In this document: piece by piece, positions 4,120-57,564 of the stretch
Numbering within the stretch: position 1 is the stretch's first letter
Layout: each line of letters opens with the position of its first letter
Source of the DNA: an uncultured Bacilli bacterium
GTDB taxonomy: Bacteria; Bacillota_I; Bacilli_A; RFN20; CAG-288
DNA: 64,000 bases
Direction of reading: 5' to 3'
Assembly: GCA_944372245.1 (NCBI GenBank)
Contig: CALVYN010000001.1
Coordinates: forward strand, 616 to 64,615
Translations under genes and position numbers: made by a program
Notes under the pieces: model-generated
What the model was told of the DNA's origin: nothing
The model's database searches: none
Seen by the model: only the letters and a program-made list of their open reading frames with translations

Positions 4120-5234
4120 TTGACCGCGACCTCACGAAGTTCCAGCGCAGGAAGGCATCGATGAAGCCATCGAGGTTGCCGTCCATCACCGACTGGACAT
4201 CGGTCTCGGAGTAGTCGGTCCGATGGTCCTTGACCAGGGTGTAGGGCTGGAAGACGTAGGAGCGGATCTGGCTGCCCCACTCGATGTCCTTCTTCACGCC
4301 ATTGATGGCCGCCAGCTTGGCCTGGCGCTCCTTCTCCATGCGCTGGAAGAGCCTGGCCTTGAGCATGTTCATGGCCATGGCCTTGTTCTGCATCTGGGAG
4401 CGCTCGACCTGGCAGGTCACCACGATGCCGGTGGGCTTGTGGATGATGCGGACGGCCGACTCGGTCTTGTTGACGTTCTGGCCGCCGGCACCCGAGCTGC
4501 GATAGGTCTCGATCGTCAGGTCGGCGGGGTTGATCTGGATGTCGATCGTGTCGTCGATGGCGGGCATGACGTTGACCGAGGCGAAGGAGGTGTGCCTGGC
4601 GTGCGAGGCATCGAAGGGAGAGATGCGGACCAGGCGGTGCACGCCCAGCTCCGACTTGAGCCGGCCGTAGGCGTAGCGCCCCTGGATCTGGATGGTGGCC
4701 GAGGAGATGCCGGCCTCATCGCCCTCCTGGTAGTCCACCAGGATGCACTTGTAGTGGTGGGAGTCGGCAAAGCGCTGATACATCCTCAGAAGCATCGCCG
4801 CCCAGTCGTGAGCCTCGGTGCCGCCGGCGCCGGGGTGGAAGTCGATGATGGCGTCCATCCGGTCGTAGGGCCCCGAGAGATAGGTCTCGCGCTCGAACTC
4901 CAACGAGTCCCGCTCCAGGTTCTTGACACTGATCTCAACCTGCTGGTGGAGGTCGCGGTCATCCTCCTCCTTCAGGAGGGCGATTGCGCCCTGGCAGTCC
5001 TCCAGCCGCTGCTCCAGAGAGAGCAGCGACTCGCGCTGCCCCTGGAGGTTTGAAAGCTCGCCGTTGACCTTCGCCGCCTGCGCCGGGTCGGACCAGAATC
5101 CGTCAGCGCTGGCCTTCTGCTCCAGCTCGGCGATTCTCGCCTCTATCCGAGGTAGGTCAAAGCCCACCTCTCAGTCCACTGAGGCGAGAGGCGATCGTCT
5201 CAGTCTCGTTTCCGAGTTCGTAGAGTTCCTTCAT
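4112..5234 (-). CDS. prfB: Peptide chain release factor 2, made by a programmed +1 frameshift
   Basis: Frame 0 runs ATG 5234 ... CTT(5162-5160) TGA(5159-5157) and encodes [25 protein letters not shown]. The +1 frame continues [13 protein letters not shown]... with SPF and GGQ (SGAGGQNVN) motifs. Total 373 aa. Confidence 0.93.
5156..5171 (-). promoter_or_regulatory. RF2 autoregulatory +1 frameshift site
   Basis: Minus strand reads AGA GGT GGG CTT TGA C. This is an internal SD-like AGGTGGG, 3 nt before the slippery CTT-TGA-C. Confidence 0.9.
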
Positions 5235-48833: not shown

Positions 48834-50309
48834 TTAGGCGAGGACGTAGATCTCGAGACCGCCGATGATGGCACGAGCATCATTAACCTTATTGGTGGCG
48901 ATGGTGAGGGTGGTGGTCTCGCCGGTCACAGCGTACTCGACATCCTGCAGCTTCGCGATGGTGAGCTCCTGCGCCACATCGTTGACCGCGAGACTGACGG
49001 TCTTTCCGCTCCAGCTATGGACATCGGTGAGGACGACCTTGGCGATATTGATGGAAGAGCCGAAGGTCAGAGTGAACGTGCCGGAGGCACTGCCAGTTCC
49101 AAGCTTGATACCGGTGTATTCGTTCTGGGTGTTGTTACCAGTAGCAGCATAGGCCTTAGACTCACCAGTCGAACCAGTCAGAGTGAGACCGGTTCCGGAG
49201 GTGAAACCACTATTCTCATTGAGCTGGGTACCGATGGCACCTTCCTCCAGTTCCGCATTACCGGTGAGGACAGTGAAGTTGATGGAGGCACCCAGAGTCT
49301 CAGTGCCAGTAGGCTTGGTGACGGTGATGGTCTTGGTGGCGGTGATCTCGCCCACAGCCGCAGTGATGGTGACCTCGCCCTCAGCGACACCGGTCACGAC
49401 GCCATCAGCGCTGACGGTGGCGACCTTATCGTCGGAGGAGGTCCAGGTAACCTCGCCGGAGGCACCGGTGGGGTTGAGCTGGGCAGTCAGAGTGGTGGTG
49501 GAGTCGACGTAGACGCTGTCGGCACCATTGATGGTGATGCTCTCGAGGGTGGGGGCGCTCACAAACTCAGCCGCAGTGACGTACATGGAAGCATAGTTGT
49601 AGTAGCCGCCGAAGTAAGCGGTGATGTTATAGACGCAGCCCTCCTTGAACTCGGACTCGAACTCGCTGGGAACATACACAGGCTCGATTTTAGTATCGGA
49701 GCCCTCGATGGGAGCGACCCAATAGCTGCCATCCTTGGCGAGGGTGGTAGTCCAGGTGTACTCCTTGATGTCGGAGGTGGAGAAGGACTCAGCGGATTTC
49801 CAGCTGTTGGCAATCTGCGCAGTCAGAGCAGTGGGCTCAGCCGCGGTGTAGGTCTCACCCTCGAGAGGGGTAATCTCGGCATCGGCAGTGAACTGGAAGG
49901 CCTTATTGAAGGAATCGATCTTGCCGGTGACCTCAAGGGCATCACCGATGTTGTAATCGGTGGAATACTTATTCAGGTAGACATAGACAGAATCGGTACC
50001 GTCAGTCAGAACGAGACCCTTGGTGGTCTTGGCGTCCACGACACCGCGCACGGTGTAGGTCTCGCCCTCGGTGGTGATCTGACCGATGGAGTAGTCCTCA
50101 GAGGGGCCAACATCGGAGGAAGAAGAAGAAGAAGAGGAGGACGACGAGCTGGAAGAGGAAGAGGAGCTAGGCGTGCTGGACGACACAGGGGTGCTGCTAG
50201 AGGAGTCACTACCAGTGCTGGACGAATTGCCGCTAGCGCCGTTGCAACCCACCAGAGCGATGGAGGTAAACGCTAGCAGAATAGGCAGAAGCTTCCGAGA
50301 ACTTTTCAT
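48834..50309 (-). CDS. Surface lipoprotein: poly-Ser linker, OB-fold-like module, Big_2 domain
   Basis: ATG 50309 (GAAAGGAAA upstream) gives MKSSRKLLPILLAFTSIALVGC (lipobox). A long Ser run follows. Big_2 signature VTWTSSDDKVATVSADGVVTGVAEGEVTITA. Confidence 0.7.
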   Translation of the reverse strand: MKSSRKLLPILLAFTSIALVGCNGASGNSSSTGSDSSSSTPVSSSTPSSSSSSSSSSSSSSSSSSDVGPSEDYSIGQITTEGETYTVRGVVDAKTTKGLVLTDGTDSVYVYLNKYSTDYNIGDALEVTGKIDSFNKAFQFTADAEITPLEGETYTAAEPTALTAQIANSWKSAESFSTSDIKEYTWTTTLAKDGSYWVAPIEGSDTKIEPVYVPSEFESEFKEGCVYNITAYFGGYYNYASMYVTAAEFVSAPTLESITINGADSVYVDSTTTLTAQLNPTGASGEVTWTSSDDKVATVSADGVVTGVAEGEVTITAAVGEITATKTITVTKPTGTETLGASINFTVLTGNAELEEGAIGTQLNENSGFTSGTGLTLTGSTGESKAYAATGNNTQNEYTGIKLGTGSASGTFTLTFGSSINIAKVVLTDVHSWSGKTVSLAVNDVAQELTIAKLQDVEYAVTGETTTLTIATNKVNDARAIIGGLEIYVLA

Positions 50310-50447
50310 AGTTTCCTTTCTTTCTGAGTGCTCAAATCGCACTTGGCTCCTATCATATATCCAAATATAAATGTAAGCGGTGCCATTACCTCGCCCCCAG
50401 CTCGCCCTTGCTAGGCTATCGTGAAAATCCCCGGGAGGAACTTAGAA

Positions 50448-51446
50448 ATGGCCAAGAAATTCACCATAGCAGGCCTCGAGCTGGCCAATCGCTACGTCCA
50501 GGCACCCCTAGCTGGCTTCTCCGATGTGGCCATGCGCATCGCGGCCGCCCGTCACGGCGCTGGCCTGGTCTACACGGAGATGATCTCGGCGGCCGCCCTA
50601 GCCCGCCACTCCGAGGAGACCCTGGAGATGGTTCGCGAGACGAAGCGGGATGAGTGCCCCGTCGCCCTCCAGCTCTTCGGCTCGGACGCCGAGGAGCTCA
50701 GGACGGCTATCAGAATATGCGAAGCTGAAGGAAGGTATGCCTTCCTGGACTTCAACCTCGGCTGCCCCGTCCCCAAGGTCATGAAGCAGGATGCCGGCTC
50801 GCACCTGCTCACCGACCTGGATAAGGCCTACTCTCTAGTCAAGACCATGGTTGAGACCTCCAGCATCCCCATCGTGGTCAAGACCAGGCTGGGATACTCA
50901 AACCCTGAAGACTGCGTGAAGATCGTCCAGATGCTGGTCTCCGCCGGCGTCTCGGCCATCGCCATGCACGGAAGGACGAGAAACGAGTTCTACACTGGGC
51001 TCCCTCACTACGACCTGCTGACCAAGGCGAGGCAGGCCTGCCCCGTGCCCTTCATCGCCAACGGCAATATCGGTCCCGACAACGCGCTGAGCATCATGGA
51101 ATCCACCAGTGCCGATGCGGTCATGATCGGGCGCAACGCCATCGGCAATCCCCTGGTCTTCACCGACCTTCTCGCGGTCGAGGACGGCTTGGAGCGGCCC
51201 GTCAGAGCCGTGGAGACTCAGGCCCAGCTGCTGCGCGAGCAGCTTGCTCTGGAGTACTCGCGCAACGTCCCTCCCGCCAAGATCTCCGTCGAGTTCAGGG
51301 CCGCGGCCCCTGCCTTCTTCCAGGGTTTGCCCAACGCTAGAAGGATCAGGGGTCTGCTGGTCCACTGCTCCAGCCAGGAGGAGTATCTTCAGGCGGTGGA
51401 TAGGATCGTGGAGGTCGCACGGGATGGAGAAGAGATACAGGATTGA
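50448..51446 (+). CDS. dus: tRNA-dihydrouridine synthase
   Basis: ATG 50448 follows GGGAGGAA. VQAPLAGFSD and TIM-barrel Dus-like blocks (NLGCPVPKV, MHGRTR). Confidence 0.85.
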   Translation: MAKKFTIAGLELANRYVQAPLAGFSDVAMRIAAARHGAGLVYTEMISAAALARHSEETLEMVRETKRDECPVALQLFGSDAEELRTAIRICEAEGRYAFLDFNLGCPVPKVMKQDAGSHLLTDLDKAYSLVKTMVETSSIPIVVKTRLGYSNPEDCVKIVQMLVSAGVSAIAMHGRTRNEFYTGLPHYDLLTKARQACPVPFIANGNIGPDNALSIMESTSADAVMIGRNAIGNPLVFTDLLAVEDGLERPVRAVETQAQLLREQLALEYSRNVPPAKISVEFRAAAPAFFQGLPNARRIRGLLVHCSSQEEYLQAVDRIVEVARDGEEIQD

Positions 51447-52662
51447 TATTCCTCTCCCCAAGGAGGTCCAGCTGGCGCTGGACGAGCTGTCCAAGCGCGG
51501 GTATCGCGCCTTTGTCGTGGGCGGCGCCGTCAGGGATTCCCTGTTGGGCAAGGCGGCTCACGACTTCGATATCGCTTCCCCTTCCTCCCCGGGCCAGACC
51601 ATCTCCTGCTTCCCAGGTTTCGACATCTCCAGATCGGGCATAAAACACGGGACTGTCCGAGTCATCATCCACCACTACCCGGTGGAGATCACCACCTTTA
51701 GAACCGAGGGGAGCTATCGGGATCACAGACACCCCGACAGCGTCAGCTTCACCAGCTCCGCCGAGGAGGACTCGAAGCGGCGCGACTTCACGATCAACGG
51801 CCTCTACTATCGCGATGGAGAGGTCTATGACTTCCACGGCGGATTGGAAGATCTCAGCAGTGGAGTCGTCCGCGCGATTGGCGATCCGATCGAGAGATTT
51901 CAGGAGGATGCGCTCCGCATCCTCCGAGGTTTGAGGTTCTCCTGCCAGCTGGGGTTTGCAATCGAGGAGAGGACTAGAGACGCCATGGCCGAGTGCGCCC
52001 ACCTGCTGGGTGAGATCTCCGAGGAGAGGATCGAGGCCGAGATGATCAGGTTGGCCTCCTATCCCTCCTTCTACGATCTGATCAGAGAGAACTCTGCGGT
52101 CTTCCTCTCTGCCATCCCGATGCTTCCGCCTGCCTTCATCTCCCGTCTCACTAAAGAGGCTTGCGATGATCCATACGCCAACATCGCCGGGATATTCGAA
52201 GCGGGGAGGATCAGCCCCGATCTCGCCTACGAGATGCTGATGAGGCTGAAGTTTTCCCGCTCGAGCGCTCAGGCGATCCAGAGCCTATTGGATATCGACA
52301 GGTCGTTCACCCTGAAGGATGTGGAATCCCCAAAGAGGTTCCGTCTCCTACTCTTAGAATCCTTCCCTCTCAATCCCGAGGTCACCATCCGCTTCCTCTG
52401 CCTCAGGGATGCGATCGAAGGAAGGGATATCAGCGGCTATCGTCAGCTGCGAGAGCAGTCTGAGGATGTCGAGTTCACCTCCTCCATCCCCTCCTCGCTC
52501 TCAGACCTGAAGGTCACTGGACACGACCTTCAGCGGATTGGCTACAAGCCCGGCCCGATCTTCCACGAAGTCTTGAAGGAGCTGCTCCTCCAGGTCAATC
52601 AGCAGAACATCCCCAACGAGCGCAAGGCGCAGCTGGAGTGGCTAAAGAGGAGAGCGAGATAG
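51424..52662 (+). CDS. cca: CCA-adding enzyme (tRNA nucleotidyltransferase)
   Basis: Start at ATG 51424 (MEKRYRIDIP). GGAVRDSLLGK and DFDI motifs, RRDFTINGLYY. Overlaps the dus 3' end by 23 nt. Confidence 0.85.
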   Translation: MEKRYRIDIPLPKEVQLALDELSKRGYRAFVVGGAVRDSLLGKAAHDFDIASPSSPGQTISCFPGFDISRSGIKHGTVRVIIHHYPVEITTFRTEGSYRDHRHPDSVSFTSSAEEDSKRRDFTINGLYYRDGEVYDFHGGLEDLSSGVVRAIGDPIERFQEDALRILRGLRFSCQLGFAIEERTRDAMAECAHLLGEISEERIEAEMIRLASYPSFYDLIRENSAVFLSAIPMLPPAFISRLTKEACDDPYANIAGIFEAGRISPDLAYEMLMRLKFSRSSAQAIQSLLDIDRSFTLKDVESPKRFRLLLLESFPLNPEVTIRFLCLRDAIEGRDISGYRQLREQSEDVEFTSSIPSSLSDLKVTGHDLQRIGYKPGPIFHEVLKELLLQVNQQNIPNERKAQLEWLKRRAR

Positions 52663-52812
52663 AGCCGCAGGAGTATTCGTAAGTCTTTTACAGACCTGTA
52701 GTCCAAAAATAAAATGTGAAAACTCCATCGCTGAATCCACCGATTTTCCTATATAGCAATTATTTTTTCGGACATTACATACGATAGAATTTTCCCATCG
52801 AGGTATCAAACG

Positions 52813-53916
52813 ATGAATGCCAGAAGATTCTTTGCGGGTCTGCCCCTGTTTTTGATCGCTTGCATGCTAATTCTTTTCCTCGTTCCGACGTTGGAATACT
52901 ACGGGACCACCAGTGGTTTAAAGCTGAATTTCTCCTTCAACATGTATCAGCTATTCCTCGGCCTCAAAGGAGAGATGTACATCGCCGGGTACAAGATCGC
53001 CTGTTCGCCAAAGCCCATGGGGGACACCGTCTATGGCCTGGCCTGCTACATCCCCATCATCTGCGCCCTCCTCTACTGCCTCTTCTCGTCGCGCAAGAGG
53101 TTTACAGCGCCCTTCCTGGCCTCTGTCATCGCGACCATCGCGGCCTTCGCAGCCCCGATCATCTTCTTCTTCAACATGGATTTCATAACTAGCACTAAGG
53201 TCTATATCGCCAACTTCGATAGTTTCAGGGCAAATTGGAATTTTCCTCTTCTCGTTGCGGGCTCTGCCGTAATTCCCTGTGTAGTCGCATTCCTCTGTCT
53301 GATTTCTACCCTGATTAACATGGTTCTCATAATCAGGAGCAATACAGCGGACGATAAGTATTCGAGCGCCGAATATTCGTCGGGAAAATTCGGCGGTGTG
53401 GTCGCCGCTCTCGTCACCTTTATCATCCTAGTGACGGCCGGTCTCTCCTATGGTGCAGCCGCCTTCAGCGGTAAGCTCATCGACCCGGTCAGACCCATGA
53501 TAGACATCCCGGGGCTGGATAACGGTAATAATGGTCATTATGACGATGGAGATGACGGATGGATCGATGACGATTTTAACGACGGCTATGACGAGGAATA
53601 CTACGACACCAAGATCATCAACGGTAGCTACCAGCCCAGCGACGGTTCCTTCAAGTGGTCCTGGAGCGATGATGTCGGCTTGACCGACTTCACCGCCGTC
53701 GATGTCCGCGCACGTGTCAATCTCGATTTTGTGAGGATCAAAGTTGCCGCTCTCGACAAGAACAAGAATCCTCTCGCCTACGCCGAGGATGAAGTCTCAA
53801 ATCTCGTGGCGGGCAACACCTACACTCTGAAATATTCCAGCTGGGACTTCTTCGTTGAGATCTTCTCCATCAAGTACTATCGCGTCATCAAGATCGAATA
53901 CCGAATCACCCGATAG
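52813..53916 (+). CDS. Polytopic membrane protein with an Asp-rich linker and a C-terminal beta-rich domain, unknown function
   Basis: 367 aa with about 6 hydrophobic helices, an acidic run (HYDDGDDGWIDDDFNDGYDEEYYD), then a soluble domain. Codon usage is visibly less GC3-biased than core genes. Confidence 0.55.
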   Translation: MNARRFFAGLPLFLIACMLILFLVPTLEYYGTTSGLKLNFSFNMYQLFLGLKGEMYIAGYKIACSPKPMGDTVYGLACYIPIICALLYCLFSSRKRFTAPFLASVIATIAAFAAPIIFFFNMDFITSTKVYIANFDSFRANWNFPLLVAGSAVIPCVVAFLCLISTLINMVLIIRSNTADDKYSSAEYSSGKFGGVVAALVTFIILVTAGLSYGAAAFSGKLIDPVRPMIDIPGLDNGNNGHYDDGDDGWIDDDFNDGYDEEYYDTKIINGSYQPSDGSFKWSWSDDVGLTDFTAVDVRARVNLDFVRIKVAALDKNKNPLAYAEDEVSNLVAGNTYTLKYSSWDFFVEIFSIKYYRVIKIEYRITR

Positions 53917-54075
53917 GAGACTGACCATTAACGCTCGCTAAATCTCAGTTCTTTTTTGTCCCGTTTTGACAACAAGACAGTTATTTAATAGTTGAGGAGA
54001 ACTGAAAGTACGTTGTCTATTTTGGGGGAGATATATATGATTGAGGCATCCGGAAATTTTTTACGGGAGTGCCAA

Positions 54076-55212
54076 ATGCTAGCTAAATTCAGTGTCAGAG
54101 GATTCAAAAACTTCAGAGAGAAATTAACCTTTGATCTCACCAACACCGGGAAATATGCATTCAATGAATCCGAAATTAGAAATGGCATCATCAATAAAGG
54201 AATCATCTATGGTGTAAATGGTGCTGGAAAATCGAATCTAGGTGAGGCCATCTTTGACATCGAAAAAAACACCGTATTCTCCACTATGACTCTCGGGTCT
54301 CAGAACCCTCCTACCCCTTTAACTTCGGGAAATTATAGGACTGTGGGGTATACAGGACCAATTGAATTTGAATATGAATTCCGTTTTGACAATGACATTG
54401 TTAGATACAAATATGAGAAGGAAAGCGAATACGAAATAATCTCAGAAGATCTAGTAGTCAACGGGAAGACCATCCTCAAGTACAGACAGGGAACTGAAGT
54501 TAAAACTGATATACCCGAAGCCAATGGCTTTGATTTTTCGCGGATGCCCAAAGGAAAATCTGCTGTCTTTTATATGTTCACCTTCATTCGTTTCTCGCGG
54601 AATTCCCTTCTCAACCGGATGCTGGATTTTGTGAAGGGTATGCTTTGGTTCAACTGTTTAAGAGGAAGAAATGAAACCTCGGGATATATGCTTCCAAATG
54701 ACTTGATCGAGGATGCAATCGTCAAAGCAGGCAAAGTTAAGGATTTTCAAAAGTTTTTGGAGAAAGCAGGCTTGCAATACAAGCTTTCATCTAGAAGCCG
54801 TCTTTATTTACTTCCTAATAATCTACAAAAGGAAGCTCAAATTATCGTGACTGAAATGAATGGCGAACAAGTTCCTCTAGCCCCGCTTTTATCAACTGGA
54901 ACCAAAGCTCTTGAATTGTTCTTCTACTGGTCGATGAGATTCTCCGAAGTCACTTTTCTTTTCATCGATGAATTCGATGCCTTCTATCACTTCGAACTGA
55001 GCACCACTATAGTTCAGCTCTTAAATGAATACACGCAGTTCCAGTCTTTTGTCACGACTCATAACACTTCTCTAATGACTAACAAGCTGATGCGGCCTGA
55101 CAACATCTTCATCATCGAAAACAACAGGATCACTCCTGTCTGCAATCGCGATTATGGAGAGCTAAGAGAGGGTCATAATCTCGAAAAGATTTACAGAAAT
55201 GGGGGATTTTAA
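54076..55212 (+). CDS. ABC/AAA-type ATPase of the AAA_15/AAA_21 (COG1106-like) class
   Basis: Walker A GVNGAGKSN, signature-like LSTGTKALE, Walker B FLFIDEFD, H-loop VTTHN. 378 aa from ATG 54076 (GGGAG upstream). ATGs at 53992 and 54037 are alternative starts. Confidence 0.8.
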   Translation: MLAKFSVRGFKNFREKLTFDLTNTGKYAFNESEIRNGIINKGIIYGVNGAGKSNLGEAIFDIEKNTVFSTMTLGSQNPPTPLTSGNYRTVGYTGPIEFEYEFRFDNDIVRYKYEKESEYEIISEDLVVNGKTILKYRQGTEVKTDIPEANGFDFSRMPKGKSAVFYMFTFIRFSRNSLLNRMLDFVKGMLWFNCLRGRNETSGYMLPNDLIEDAIVKAGKVKDFQKFLEKAGLQYKLSSRSRLYLLPNNLQKEAQIIVTEMNGEQVPLAPLLSTGTKALELFFYWSMRFSEVTFLFIDEFDAFYHFELSTTIVQLLNEYTQFQSFVTTHNTSLMTNKLMRPDNIFIIENNRITPVCNRDYGELREGHNLEKIYRNGGF

Positions 55213-55953
55213 TTGAGAGGAGGCAAGAATCAGACTCTCATCCTTGTTGAATGAGAAAGGACAGAAAGACTTTTCTTTGAAAGGTTAAATAAAACAATTC
55301 TCGGAGATTACAAATTCAACATATTCGCATTCAAATGCGATATCTATGCCCTCTATCAATTTCTTCAAAAATATAATTTCGATATAGAAGTTCCTCAGGC
55401 ATTGATTGAATCACTCGATTCCATCACGAAAGAAGAAAGAGAGATTCTCCGGTCGACAAAATTCACTCGCATCTTTCTCGTATTCGACCTGGATATTAAG
55501 GATGATGGATTCGATTATGAAGAAAAGAAGCAACACCTCAAGAAACTCCAGCGGTTGTTTAACAACGAAACTGAATATGGTCTGCTTCTTATCAATTATC
55601 CAATGTTTGAATCTATACGAGAAAAATTCGATGGGGAACACTATTTCGACCCATTCACTAAGAAATCATATAAAGAAGTCATAGATAAAAGAGGAGAAAA
55701 GATAGACTTCAGCAAGTGTGATTACACGCGCATTCTATCGTTGATCAACAACTCTATCTGCTTAACCAACAGATTATTAACCGGCAGTACATCACGCCCC
55801 AAATACGAGTACATCAAAAGCACTTGGGAGCAGGGTATCGTCTTGGATGAAGAAATCAAACTTCTGGAGGAGAACGGAGAATTGCTTTGCCTCAATACCT
55901 CCTGTCAGCTTCCTCTAATCTGCGTTGGAGAAAAGCTCTACAAGAAGCTTTGA
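55213..55953 (+). pseudogene. RloB/Toprim-like gene interrupted by one in-frame TGA (55252-55254)
   Basis: TTG 55213 lies directly after the ATPase TAA, with GGGGGA 7 nt upstream. It reads RGGKNQTLILVE-TGA-ERTERLFFERL ... RIFLVFDLDIKDD, matching the RloB/Toprim pattern ILIVCEGEKTE..YF ... vFDxD, with the stop at the Gly position. The track only reports the part from 55402. Confidence 0.7.
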
Positions 55954-55956
55954 TAA

Positions 55957-57564
55957 CTACTTCTTCTCAGGCTCGCCGTCAATCAGGACCTCGAGCCAGG
56001 CAATTTCCTCATCCTTCTTCAATCTAGGGAAGAGAGGAACAGGATCGTTGACCGCGATGCCCGCGAGAGCATTCCGCTCGCTGAGGGTGGAGAAGTCGCG
56101 ATACTGGGCGGGGACATTCAGCTCGTCGAGAGCGGCGCTCGCCTTGGTGACCAAGAAGGGCGACAGGAGCAGAGAGGAGATGCGGATGGCGTGCGCCAGA
56201 GCGGCCATGGTCTCCTCGACCTTGGCGTTCTCGCCCTCCTTAGCGGCCTTCCAAGGGGCCATGTCATCGATGTACTTGTTGGCGATCAGAGCGATCTGCA
56301 TCGCGTGCTCCGCACCGGAGGTCACATCGAAGCGGTCCATCGCATCCATGTAGTTCTTCACCGCCAGATCGATATCGGCGAAGAGCTTCTGGGTGAAGGG
56401 GTCGTTCTCGGTGACAGCGGGGATCTTGCCGCCGCAGTACTTCCCGATCATGTTGATGGTGCGGTTGATCAGGTTGCCGTAGCCATTGGCCAGCTCGGTG
56501 TTGATGAGATTGACAAAGAGCGAGGGGGTGAACATGCCATCCTCGCCGAAGCGCACCGCGCGGGCCAGATAGTACCTGAGCGAGTCCAGACCGTAGCGGT
56601 CAATCAGAGGCTTGGGCTGAGGAGCGTTGCCCAGACTCTTGGAGAGCTTGACGCCAGAGCGGGTCAGAAGCAGGCCGTGGACCAGGATCTTGTCGGGCAG
56701 CCTGAGGCCCAGAGCCAGCAGCAGGATGGTCCAGTAGATGGTGTGGAAGCGATTGATCTCGCGACCGACCAGCTGGACGATCTCGCAGTCGGGACCCCAG
56801 AACTTCTCGAAGCGGCTCTGGTCATCGCTCAGATAGCCCAGGGCGGAGATGTAGTTGAGCAGCGCATCGATCCAGACGTAGATGATGTGCTTAGGATCCT
56901 CATCGATGGGGATACCCCAGGAGAAGGAGGTGCGGGTGATGCACAGGTCCTCCAGGCCGGGCTTGATGAAGGTGTTGATCATCTCGTTGAGCTTGCCGCC
57001 GGGGACGAAGTCGGGGTGCTCCTCGTAGAACTTGAGCAGCTGGGGCACATACTTCTTGCAGTTGAGGAAGTAGGCCTCCTCCGACTCCATGTGGCAGGGG
57101 CGGTTGCAGGAGGGGCAGAGGTTGCCGGGCTGGACCAGCTGCGAGGGAGTGAAGAAGGACTCGCAGGGGGTGCAGTACCAGCCGCTGTACTCTCCCTTGT
57201 AGACATCTCCCTGCTCCAGGAGCCGGGTGAAGACCTTCTTGACCACCGCCACATGGCGGGGCTGGGTGGTGCGGATGAAGTCATCGTAGTCGATGTGCAT
57301 CAGCTTCCAGACGTCCTGGAAGGTCTTGGCGATGCCGTCGACATATTCCTGCGGGGTCTTGCCCGCCTCTCTCGCCTTCTCCTCGATCTTCTGGCCGTGC
57401 TCGTCATCGCCAGTCAGAAAGAACACATCGCGGCCCTTCAGCTTCTCGTAGCGGGCGATGCTATCCGCAATCGAAGTGGTGTAGGCATGCCCGATGTGAG
57501 GCATACCCGAGGTGTAGTAGATCGGTGTCGTCACATAGAAGTATCTCTTCTTATTTTCAGCCAT
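55957..57564 (-). CDS. metG: Methionyl-tRNA synthetase (short form, no C-terminal Trbp111 domain)
   Basis: HIGH motif (MPHIGHAYT), KMSKS-like KLSKS, and a zinc knuckle CTPCESF...CPSC. 535 aa. Confidence 0.93.
   Translation of the reverse strand: MAENKKRYFYVTTPIYYTSGMPHIGHAYTTSIADSIARYEKLKGRDVFFLTGDDEHGQKIEEKAREAGKTPQEYVDGIAKTFQDVWKLMHIDYDDFIRTTQPRHVAVVKKVFTRLLEQGDVYKGEYSGWYCTPCESFFTPSQLVQPGNLCPSCNRPCHMESEEAYFLNCKKYVPQLLKFYEEHPDFVPGGKLNEMINTFIKPGLEDLCITRTSFSWGIPIDEDPKHIIYVWIDALLNYISALGYLSDDQSRFEKFWGPDCEIVQLVGREINRFHTIYWTILLLALGLRLPDKILVHGLLLTRSGVKLSKSLGNAPQPKPLIDRYGLDSLRYYLARAVRFGEDGMFTPSLFVNLINTELANGYGNLINRTINMIGKYCGGKIPAVTENDPFTQKLFADIDLAVKNYMDAMDRFDVTSGAEHAMQIALIANKYIDDMAPWKAAKEGENAKVEETMAALAHAIRISSLLLSPFLVTKASAALDELNVPAQYRDFSTLSERNALAGIAVNDPVPLFPRLKKDEEIAWLEVLIDGEPEKK

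Follow-up and report, generated by a model that had tools for sequence, protein, structure and literature searches.

Does the AT-rich island adjoining metG in the genome of an uncultured member of the Bacilli (~59% GC) encode a phage-defence module, to which kind would such a module belong and is it still able to work? The question arises from a stretch of 64,000 nucleotides, hereafter the window, taken from contig CALVYN010000001.1 of assembly GCA_944372245.1 (positions 616 to 64,615, forward strand), in which an initial annotation made from the letters alone had proposed an acquired two-gene defence module, composed of an ABC-type ATPase and a Toprim/RloB-like protein, of a subfamily that could not be named and with a pairing that was possibly novel. 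The association of an ATPase with a Toprim domain is the common logic of the OLD nucleases (where both are fused), of RloA/RloB, of the AbiL pairs and of AriA/AriB (PARIS), which are linked to phage defence or restriction. The explanation that best accounts jointly for the observations, with a probability of roughly 0.8, is that the island is a copy of a PDC-M12/AbiL-like module lodged between cca and metG in a slot that varies from strain to strain, that its intact form would act by the mechanism outlined below, and that its nuclease gene has recently received a nonsense codon, within a wider pattern of recurrent effector loss. In other words, the window copy is an ordinary, decaying and inactivated copy of a catalogued kind of candidate defence system.

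Both proteins of the island find their best PADLOC matches in one and the same candidate, and the module is PDC-M12, an AbiL-like system. The comparison with the PADLOC profiles, which the initial annotation had proposed, matched the ATPase to the hidden Markov model (HMM) PDC-M12A at E 5.6e-107 (356 bits, residues 1-378 on profile positions 1-367 of 369) and the second frame to PDC-M12B at E 1.1e-34 (residues 5-233), the profile scores of this second frame being computed, here and below, with a Gly restored at codon 14. The subfamily thus has a name, and the pairing, already catalogued as PDC-M12, is no novelty, which sets aside both reservations made at the outset; a literature search for the name PDC-M12 found no paper. 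Beyond these matches, the ATPase also aligns with the AbiLi HMM (E 2.1e-40, covering profile positions 49-281 of 326), with a generic PADLOC HMM of the AriA/AAA_21 type (E 1.4e-21), with Pfam AAA_21 (E 4.1e-20) and, weakly, with HEC-01A (E 2.2e-7); the match to the GajA HMM of PADLOC is limited to ~55 residues at E 0.0027. As for the second frame, it yields a short partial match to the AbiLii HMM (E 6.5e-7, 28 bits, profile positions 29-84 of 170) and a match to Pfam RloB (PF13707; E 2.1e-7, model positions 2-110) at 31.8 bits, that is right at the gathering threshold of 31.5 bits, below which the intact sister allele P0001 falls (25.8 bits); across the nuclease family, 47 of the 109 members match RloB at E <= 0.01. 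Neither DUF4435 (PF14491) nor Toprim_OLD of Pfam matched the second frame, even at E <= 1, and the AriB HMM in PADLOC did not match it either. Of the Pfam families that the initial annotation had in view, AAA_21 and, at its threshold, RloB were therefore recovered, but DUF4435 and Toprim_OLD were not, and AbiL is closer to the module than PARIS, OLD or Gabija are.

The first gene encodes an ABC ATPase with an ABC head fold, as indicated by its motifs, its Pfam match and structural comparison. The open reading frame (ORF) of 378 residues and the Walker A, Walker B and H-loop motifs reported by the initial annotation were all located (Table 1), the start being placed at ATG 54076 by alignment to the family profile and the stop being the TAA at 55210-55212. 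An AlphaFold (AF2) model of the protein, with a predicted local distance difference test score (pLDDT) of 87.5, returned 164 Foldseek matches in the PDB at E <= 1e-3, with PtuA, Rad50 and SMC heads at the top (1e-10 to 1e-7); a PDB search with the ATPase sequence gave nothing meaningful, and exact-sequence look-ups of the 378-residue ATPase and of MetG gave no match. Homologues number more than 4000 at E <= 1e-10, and the window ATPase keeps all 30 invariant columns of a 70-sequence alignment in which it is itself included.

The second frame begins at TTG 55213, in the same reading frame as the ATPase gene and directly after its TAA, as the initial annotation had noted, with a zero gap and a GGGGGA Shine-Dalgarno-like run a few bases upstream. 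Its translation runs LRGGKNQTLILVE, is followed by a TGA and by ERTERLFFERL..., and closes with TGA TAA at 55951-55956. The open second ORF of 246 codons that had been announced does not exist as such, the "x" then written in LILVE-x-ERTE being an in-frame TGA at codon 14, and the longest uninterrupted ORF of the frame that is initiated by a start codon encodes 183 residues from TTG 55402. Around this interruption the hallmarks of the family are in place. A profile search of the nuclease family gathered 1513 representatives, and when 109 sequences are aligned, E13, G14, D92, G123 and P130 do not vary, N128, Y129, P130, M131 and E133 being invariant or nearly so; position 94 holds Asp in the majority of the nine close homologues that were aligned, with Glu in a single one. 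The AF2 model of the intact allele P0001 (pLDDT 95.6, predicted template modelling score 0.92) has strands at residues 6-12, 33-39, 86-92 and 123-129; Glu13 falls at the end of beta1 and Asp92 at that of beta3, giving a predicted four-stranded parallel sheet with a Glu after beta1 and a DxD after beta3 that corresponds to the Toprim arrangement. According to PMC12065111, RloB belongs to Toprim and has these residues. The earlier recognition of the Glu of LILVE and of the DxD of FDLD as RloB-type Toprim motifs is in agreement with this placement, and in BFVD the nuclease model has as its best structural neighbour an entry named "RloB-like protein" (E 1.4e-3, probability 0.97).

Judged from sequence comparison, the TGA at codon 14 is a real nonsense mutation and a derived one. 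It replaces the Gly adjoining the catalytic Glu13, the very residue found invariant above. The sister allele P0001 (246 residues, intact; loci L003-L006), which is 77-78% identical to the window second frame in BLAST comparisons, has GGA at codon 14 and ends with TAA TAA instead of the TGA TAA of the window; the change is a single G-to-T (GGA to TGA) and, since the sister allele carries GGA and TAA TAA, it is a derived point mutation rather than an ancestral coding convention. An origin of the island under code 25 (TGA as Gly) or code 4 was considered and rejected on the basis of these sister codons and of the TGA stops of the host. That the TGA is decoded nevertheless, as Gly under code 25, as Trp under code 4, as selenocysteine or by programmed or leaky read-through, so that the nuclease is made and the module works, is very improbable. 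UGA does mean Gly in genetic code 25, the TGA falls exactly on the family-invariant Gly, the rest of the frame is intact with its conserved residues kept, an organism reading through TGA would stop one codon later at the TGA TAA end, and AT-richness, which the island shows, tends to go with code-4 and code-25 lineages; against this, host genes with a high GC content at third codon positions end in TGA as well as in TAG and TAA, TGA being a stop there, the long host ORFs metG and groEL run uninterrupted under table 11, the 378 codons of the ATPase gene contain no in-frame TGA, the sister allele is written as above, and the gene callers used on two other assemblies likewise split the nuclease gene. 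An error of sequencing or assembly, with the gene intact in the organism, is hardly credible: a single base does separate the TGA from a sense codon, but the identical TGA is present in L001 (ERR4096580) and L002 (ERZ24773505), which are independent assemblies from other samples, and among 5.8 billion clustered proteins no intact 246-residue protein of ~99% identity was found, only the truncated 183-residue call (P0002).

The nonsense mutation is also recent, the rest of the gene having evolved under purifying selection, because the ratio of non-synonymous to synonymous substitution rates (dN/dS) between the second gene and the sister allele is 0.24, the derived residues are balanced between the two alleles (9 vs. 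10), frameshifts are absent and every other conserved residue is kept. A long-standing decay of the pseudogene was rejected on the low dN/dS, the symmetry of the derived changes and the lack of frameshifts. As the nuclease ends after 13 residues, the module can no longer deliver its effector, and since a restart at TTG 55402 would leave out strands beta1 and beta2 as well as the catalytic Glu, it is non-functional as a nuclease system.

The locus was compared across related loci reached through P0002 and its homologues P0001, P0010 and P0012, and at least three deep haplotypes are distinguished, among them A (the window), B (L003-L006, four metagenomic contigs) and C (L087/L088). Haplotype B has the same gene order as the window, i.e. 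cca, the gene of a 367-residue membrane protein, the ATPase gene, the second gene and metG, and it is the only one in which the B gene of the module is intact at this locus. Between the window and L003, cca and what follows as far as ~55068 are 98-100% identical in nucleotides, a figure that falls to 77-94% over the stretch that begins at 55069 and reaches the 3' end of metG; the synonymous divergence (dS) from haplotype B is 0.03-0.10 to the left of this breakpoint and 0.47-0.74 to its right, reaching the same value of 0.474 in the second gene and in the metG 3' end. That the second gene reaches a protein identity of just 77% is thus due to a recombination breakpoint near 55070, the haplotypes being mosaic, and an effector-specific diversification was rejected, the lowered identity and the equal dS both extending as far as the metG 3' end. 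In haplotype C, the flanks are ~98% identical to the window in nucleotides and are of the same species as the window, with protein identities of 98% for MetG, 98.5% for Dus, 100% for GroEL and 99-100% for L31. Inside the segment, nucleotide identity falls to 52-78% for cca, 74.5% for the ATPase gene and 55-74% for the nuclease remnant, with a protein identity of 67% for the CCA enzyme and 71% for the ATPase, and the 367-residue protein gene, present in haplotypes A and B, is absent.

The effector has been lost more than once. In L087/L088, ~540 bp of the nuclease gene are deleted and a ~210-bp remnant of its 3' end is left next to a full-length ATPase gene. In L089, a more distant family member whose ATPase is 53% identical to that of the window and which adjoins recF-gyrB, the nuclease partner (4601-5212) carries a TAT to TAG change (Tyr204 to stop) beside an intact ATPase, the ATPases of L090 and L091 being identical to that of L089 and their partner being intact at 244 residues (4639-5373 in L091). 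Together with the window, this makes three independent effector lesions with the ATPase intact each time, which is most simply read as the toxic partner being what the cell can afford to lose before anything else. It is quite unlikely that the solitary ATPase is itself under selection, as an antidote against incoming homologous nucleases or as a sensor for another effector, with the locus being remodelled rather than decaying. The intact ATPase ORF beside all three lesions, the full length of the L087/L088 ATPase beside the ~210-bp remnant despite its 71% identity, the invariant residues kept by the window ATPase and the antitoxin activity of the AAA partners of Toprim toxins in tested pairs (PMC10440598) would fit such a role. 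On the other side, the two genes are strictly paired in all of the 19 other loci considered below, the window holds no second effector and no second copy of the module, the window lesion is recent enough that the ATPase may not have had time to decay, and the loss of the toxin first is the only order that the cell survives, an order which by itself explains the pattern. Were it true, the selection of the ATPase alone would define a degeneration pathway by which a module for abortive infection ends up as a gene of anti-addiction or immunity.

Table 1. Positions of the module, its motifs, its lesion and its surroundings in the window.
Feature	Position	Strand	Evidence or remark
ABC-type ATPase gene, 378 residues, intact, PDC-M12A/AbiLi-like	54076-55212	+	ORF, motifs, profile matches
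Walker A GVNGAGKSN	54211-54237	+	ATPase motif
Signature LSTGTK	54889-54906	+	ATPase motif
Walker B FLFIDEFD	54955-54978	+	ATPase motif
H-loop TTHN	55054-55065	+	ATPase motif
RloB-like Toprim nuclease gene (candidate), PDC-M12B-like, pseudogene here	55213-55956	+	TTG start 55213; ends TGA TAA
Catalytic Glu13 of LILVE (nuclease)	55249-55251	+	translation
In-frame TGA nonsense	55252-55254	+	codon 14; replaces invariant Gly next to catalytic Glu13
Toprim DxD, Asp92-Leu-Asp94 of FDLD	55486-55494	+	disrupted nuclease
Second conserved block NYPMFES	55594-55614	+	disrupted nuclease
AT-rich leader 5' of ATPase gene	53917-54075	+	holds TTGACA 53966-53971; convincing -10 hexamer absent
Recombination breakpoint, haplotype A vs. 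B (approximate)	55060-55080		in ATPase 3' end
Strain-hypervariable segment with module	~51440-56100		cca, 367-residue protein gene, ATPase, nuclease pseudogene, last ~150 bp of metG
367-residue membrane protein gene (predicted)	52813-53916	+	GC ~0.50; variable cargo adjoining module
metG, methionyl-tRNA synthetase, 535 residues	55957-57564	-	convergent right neighbour of module

Beyond this locus, the ATPase gene lies directly upstream of the nuclease-family gene, on the same strand, in 19 of the 19 related loci with upstream DNA, comprising 14 IMG/VR contigs, one Escherichia plasmid, one Vibrio filamentous phage and three metagenomic contigs in which the pair adjoins recF-gyrB. The plasmid (L092, NZ_CP130162.1), pEA04.6 of Escherichia albertii, is a 4.4-kb mobilizable element of the Rop and ColE1 type with the pair as almost its sole cargo, and the phage (L093), Vibrio phage 10N.286.54.F2_PE002, carries the pair with the ATPase annotated as Paris_II__AAA_21; the two genes of the module overlap by 8 bp in such relatives. 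Every IMG/VR nuclease copy that is not truncated by the end of its contig has its full length. The ATPase-nuclease pair is a conserved and mobile operon, and the ATPase plus Toprim logic of the initial annotation is borne out by the AAA_21 and RloB matches, the ABC-head fold and this conserved adjacency.

By analogy with AbiL, PARIS and the pairs formed by AAA antitoxins and Toprim toxins, the intact form may be pictured as follows. The two genes would be translationally coupled; the ATPase would act both as an infection sensor and as a keeper restraining the nuclease; a phage cue would release or activate the nuclease, which would in turn cut host tRNA or DNA through the putative metal site formed by Glu13 and Asp92-x-Asp94, and the infection would abort. 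In PARIS, the ATPase holds the nuclease until triggered (PMC11464382), and AAA-ATPase partners neutralise Toprim_OLD toxins (PMC10440598).

Several points weigh against the PDC-M12/AbiL-like reading. The nuclease model returned nothing from the PDB with Foldseek at E <= 1e-3, and neither AriB, OLD nor GajA, with which the initial annotation had envisaged a structural comparison, was among the results. Among the weak PDB matches of the model (E 0.03-0.2), chains of type IIA topoisomerases (gyrase B, topoisomerase II, ParE) are over-represented, and a PDB sequence search with the nuclease-family profile gave no match at all. The putative Toprim assignment is drawn from motifs, a predicted topology and borderline RloB scores, low-level UGA read-through at codon 14 is possible, and what would be the nuclease substrate, the trigger and the stoichiometry are conceived by pure analogy. 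Besides, the PDC systems are 145 candidates that are untested according to their authors, who found them by their being embedded in BREX, DISARM or type I restriction-modification loci, and HEC-01, another candidate of the ABC plus TOPRIM kind, gave no protection in the assay of the same authors (bioRxiv 10.1101/2024.01.29.577857).

These last points also bear on the possibility that the intact module would be a toxin-antitoxin or addiction cassette, or serve DNA or RNA housekeeping, and be called defence by association only. This is unlikely. PDC-M12 being a candidate only and HEC-01 having given no defence are in its favour, as are the related AAA plus Toprim pairs, which are validated only as toxin-neutralisation pairs (PMC10440598), and the ColE1-type plasmids of 4.4 kb on which the pair is nearly the sole cargo, as fits plasmid addiction. 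Nonetheless, PMC10440598 reports, citing Deng et al. (1999), that the founding relative AbiL acts by abortive infection, its Toprim effector being toxic, the module is also found in phages and predicted viral contigs, and it occupies a variable slot in which a neighbouring species has a PDC-M26A-like gene (E 2e-39); moreover, toxin-antitoxin and abortive-infection roles are not mutually exclusive.

Whether the module was acquired, as first proposed, receives a divided answer. The abrupt switch in composition is confirmed, GC being 0.36-0.42 across ~53800-55800 against 0.59-0.63 in metG and the genes further out (400-base windows), with ~0.50 over the membrane-protein gene to the left of the island. 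In the nearest catalogued species, Bacillales bacterium UBA6449, whose MetG is 80% identical to that of the window, the module is absent and the metG-cca interval holds 6.7 kb of other cargo. The foreign composition and this absence speak for an acquired module. However, with three deeply diverged haplotypes and no mobile-element signatures, the module, though compositionally foreign, is old at the locus rather than recently acquired: flanking direct repeats are only short and at chance level, tRNA genes are absent from the window, and the immediate neighbours are cca, the membrane-protein gene and metG, no search having been aimed at integrase genes. The presence or absence of the module in the metG-cca interval of relatives, which the initial annotation had meant to compare, differs between UBA6449, which lacks it, and L001-L006 and L087/L088, which carry the module or its remnants. 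Since UBA6449 holds a PDC-M26A-like gene in the same interval, the cca-metG slot suggests a defence hotspot. The gene in question encodes a 564-residue McrB-like AAA protein, which matches PDC-M26A at E 2e-39 over part of its length and Pfam AAA_5 weakly, and is followed by that of a 463-residue Cys-rich protein (both within L007, 15114-18204); a 393-residue membrane protein of this interval is unrelated to the 367-residue protein of the window.

As for the boundaries of the island, the metG stop codon (TAG, minus strand) starts at 55957, directly after the TGA TAA of the second frame, and no terminator-like site was found between that frame and metG, in accordance with the abutment without terminator described initially. 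The identity of metG is supported by the L087 product, which is 98% identical to the window MetG and has tRNA-synt_1g and Anticodon_3 domains. The TTGACA pointed out upstream of the ATPase gene is present, but a promoter role does not follow: no acceptable -10 hexamer was found at the spacings tested (16-18 nt), and the promoter-like sites of the region, 5 against 5.9 expected from shuffled sequence, are at chance level. The sole such site reported for the leader is TTGTCT-17-TATGAT at 54013-54041. A 23-nt direct repeat containing CCGTTTTGACAA, 78% identical between its copies, lies at 53961-53983 in the leader, where it spans the TTGACA, and at 54381-54403 inside the ATPase gene, and is probably due to chance.

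Among the neighbouring genes, the 367-residue protein is predicted to be a multi-pass membrane protein with an acidic Asp/Tyr-rich stretch, and Pfam and PADLOC scans gave no match. The cca gene (51440-52662; 4525-5763 in L087), which is essential, is only 67% identical at the protein level in haplotype C, against 98-100% for dus, metG, rpmE and groEL in the flanks, and this core gene seems to have been drawn into the hypervariable slot, where a deep allele took its place. Further out, a strain-variable gene on the minus strand (48834-50342) encodes a 502-residue lipoprotein-like surface protein with a long poly-Ser linker; its strongest segments are 74-93% identical in L087/L088 and a segment over its N-terminal part is 55% identical.

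In terms of discovery the locus has little value, the architecture being catalogued as PDC-M12 and resembling AbiL, and the window copy being broken. The intact allele of haplotype B (P0001 with the ATPase P0009) is nonetheless a natural "repaired" version with which the PDC-M12 candidate family can be tested, and the locus offers, in close strains, a compact natural series of intact, nonsense and deleted effectors that illustrates how it is the toxic effector that goes first. Such a module would be missed or mis-called by annotation pipelines, as gene callers give a 183-residue fragment without a domain.

Compared with known systems, the module shares with HEC-01, which is Hma-embedded, the two-gene arrangement in which an ABC ATPase accompanies a TOPRIM protein and a weak similarity of the ATPase HMM, but belongs to another subfamily. 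The RloA/RloB cassettes of type I restriction-modification loci resemble it by the RloB-like BFVD neighbour, the RloB match itself lying at the threshold; here, however, no hsd genes adjoin the module, whose neighbours are cca, the membrane-protein gene and metG. PARIS likewise has its ABC ATPase and its Toprim effector as separate proteins, but the window effector is devoid of DUF4435 and its ATPase has 378 residues, as compared with an AriA of 55 kDa with a coiled-coil insertion. The OLD nucleases (P2 Old, classes 1 and 2) and GajA of Gabija combine an ABC ATPase with a Toprim domain bearing the same Glu and DxD metal site, yet in single fused polypeptides, whereas a TAA splits the genes in all three haplotypes here; moreover, no GajB-like helicase is nearby and the GajA match is as poor as stated above. 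AbiL is grouped with OLD, Gabija and PARIS among the ABC-ATPase plus Toprim systems (PMC11464382). The AbiLi/AbiLii pair of Lactococcus lactis is alike in being a two-gene system of an ATPase and an RloB/Toprim-like effector, with the AbiLi HMM matching, although much more weakly than that of PDC-M12, and the AbiLii HMM only over a short part, and the window copy is chromosomal and from another host lineage. Regarding PDC-M12 itself, the B gene of the window carries a nonsense codon and the complete two-gene system is not present, but the A protein is matched over its full length, the B protein is matched too, and gene order, strand and tight coupling are alike.

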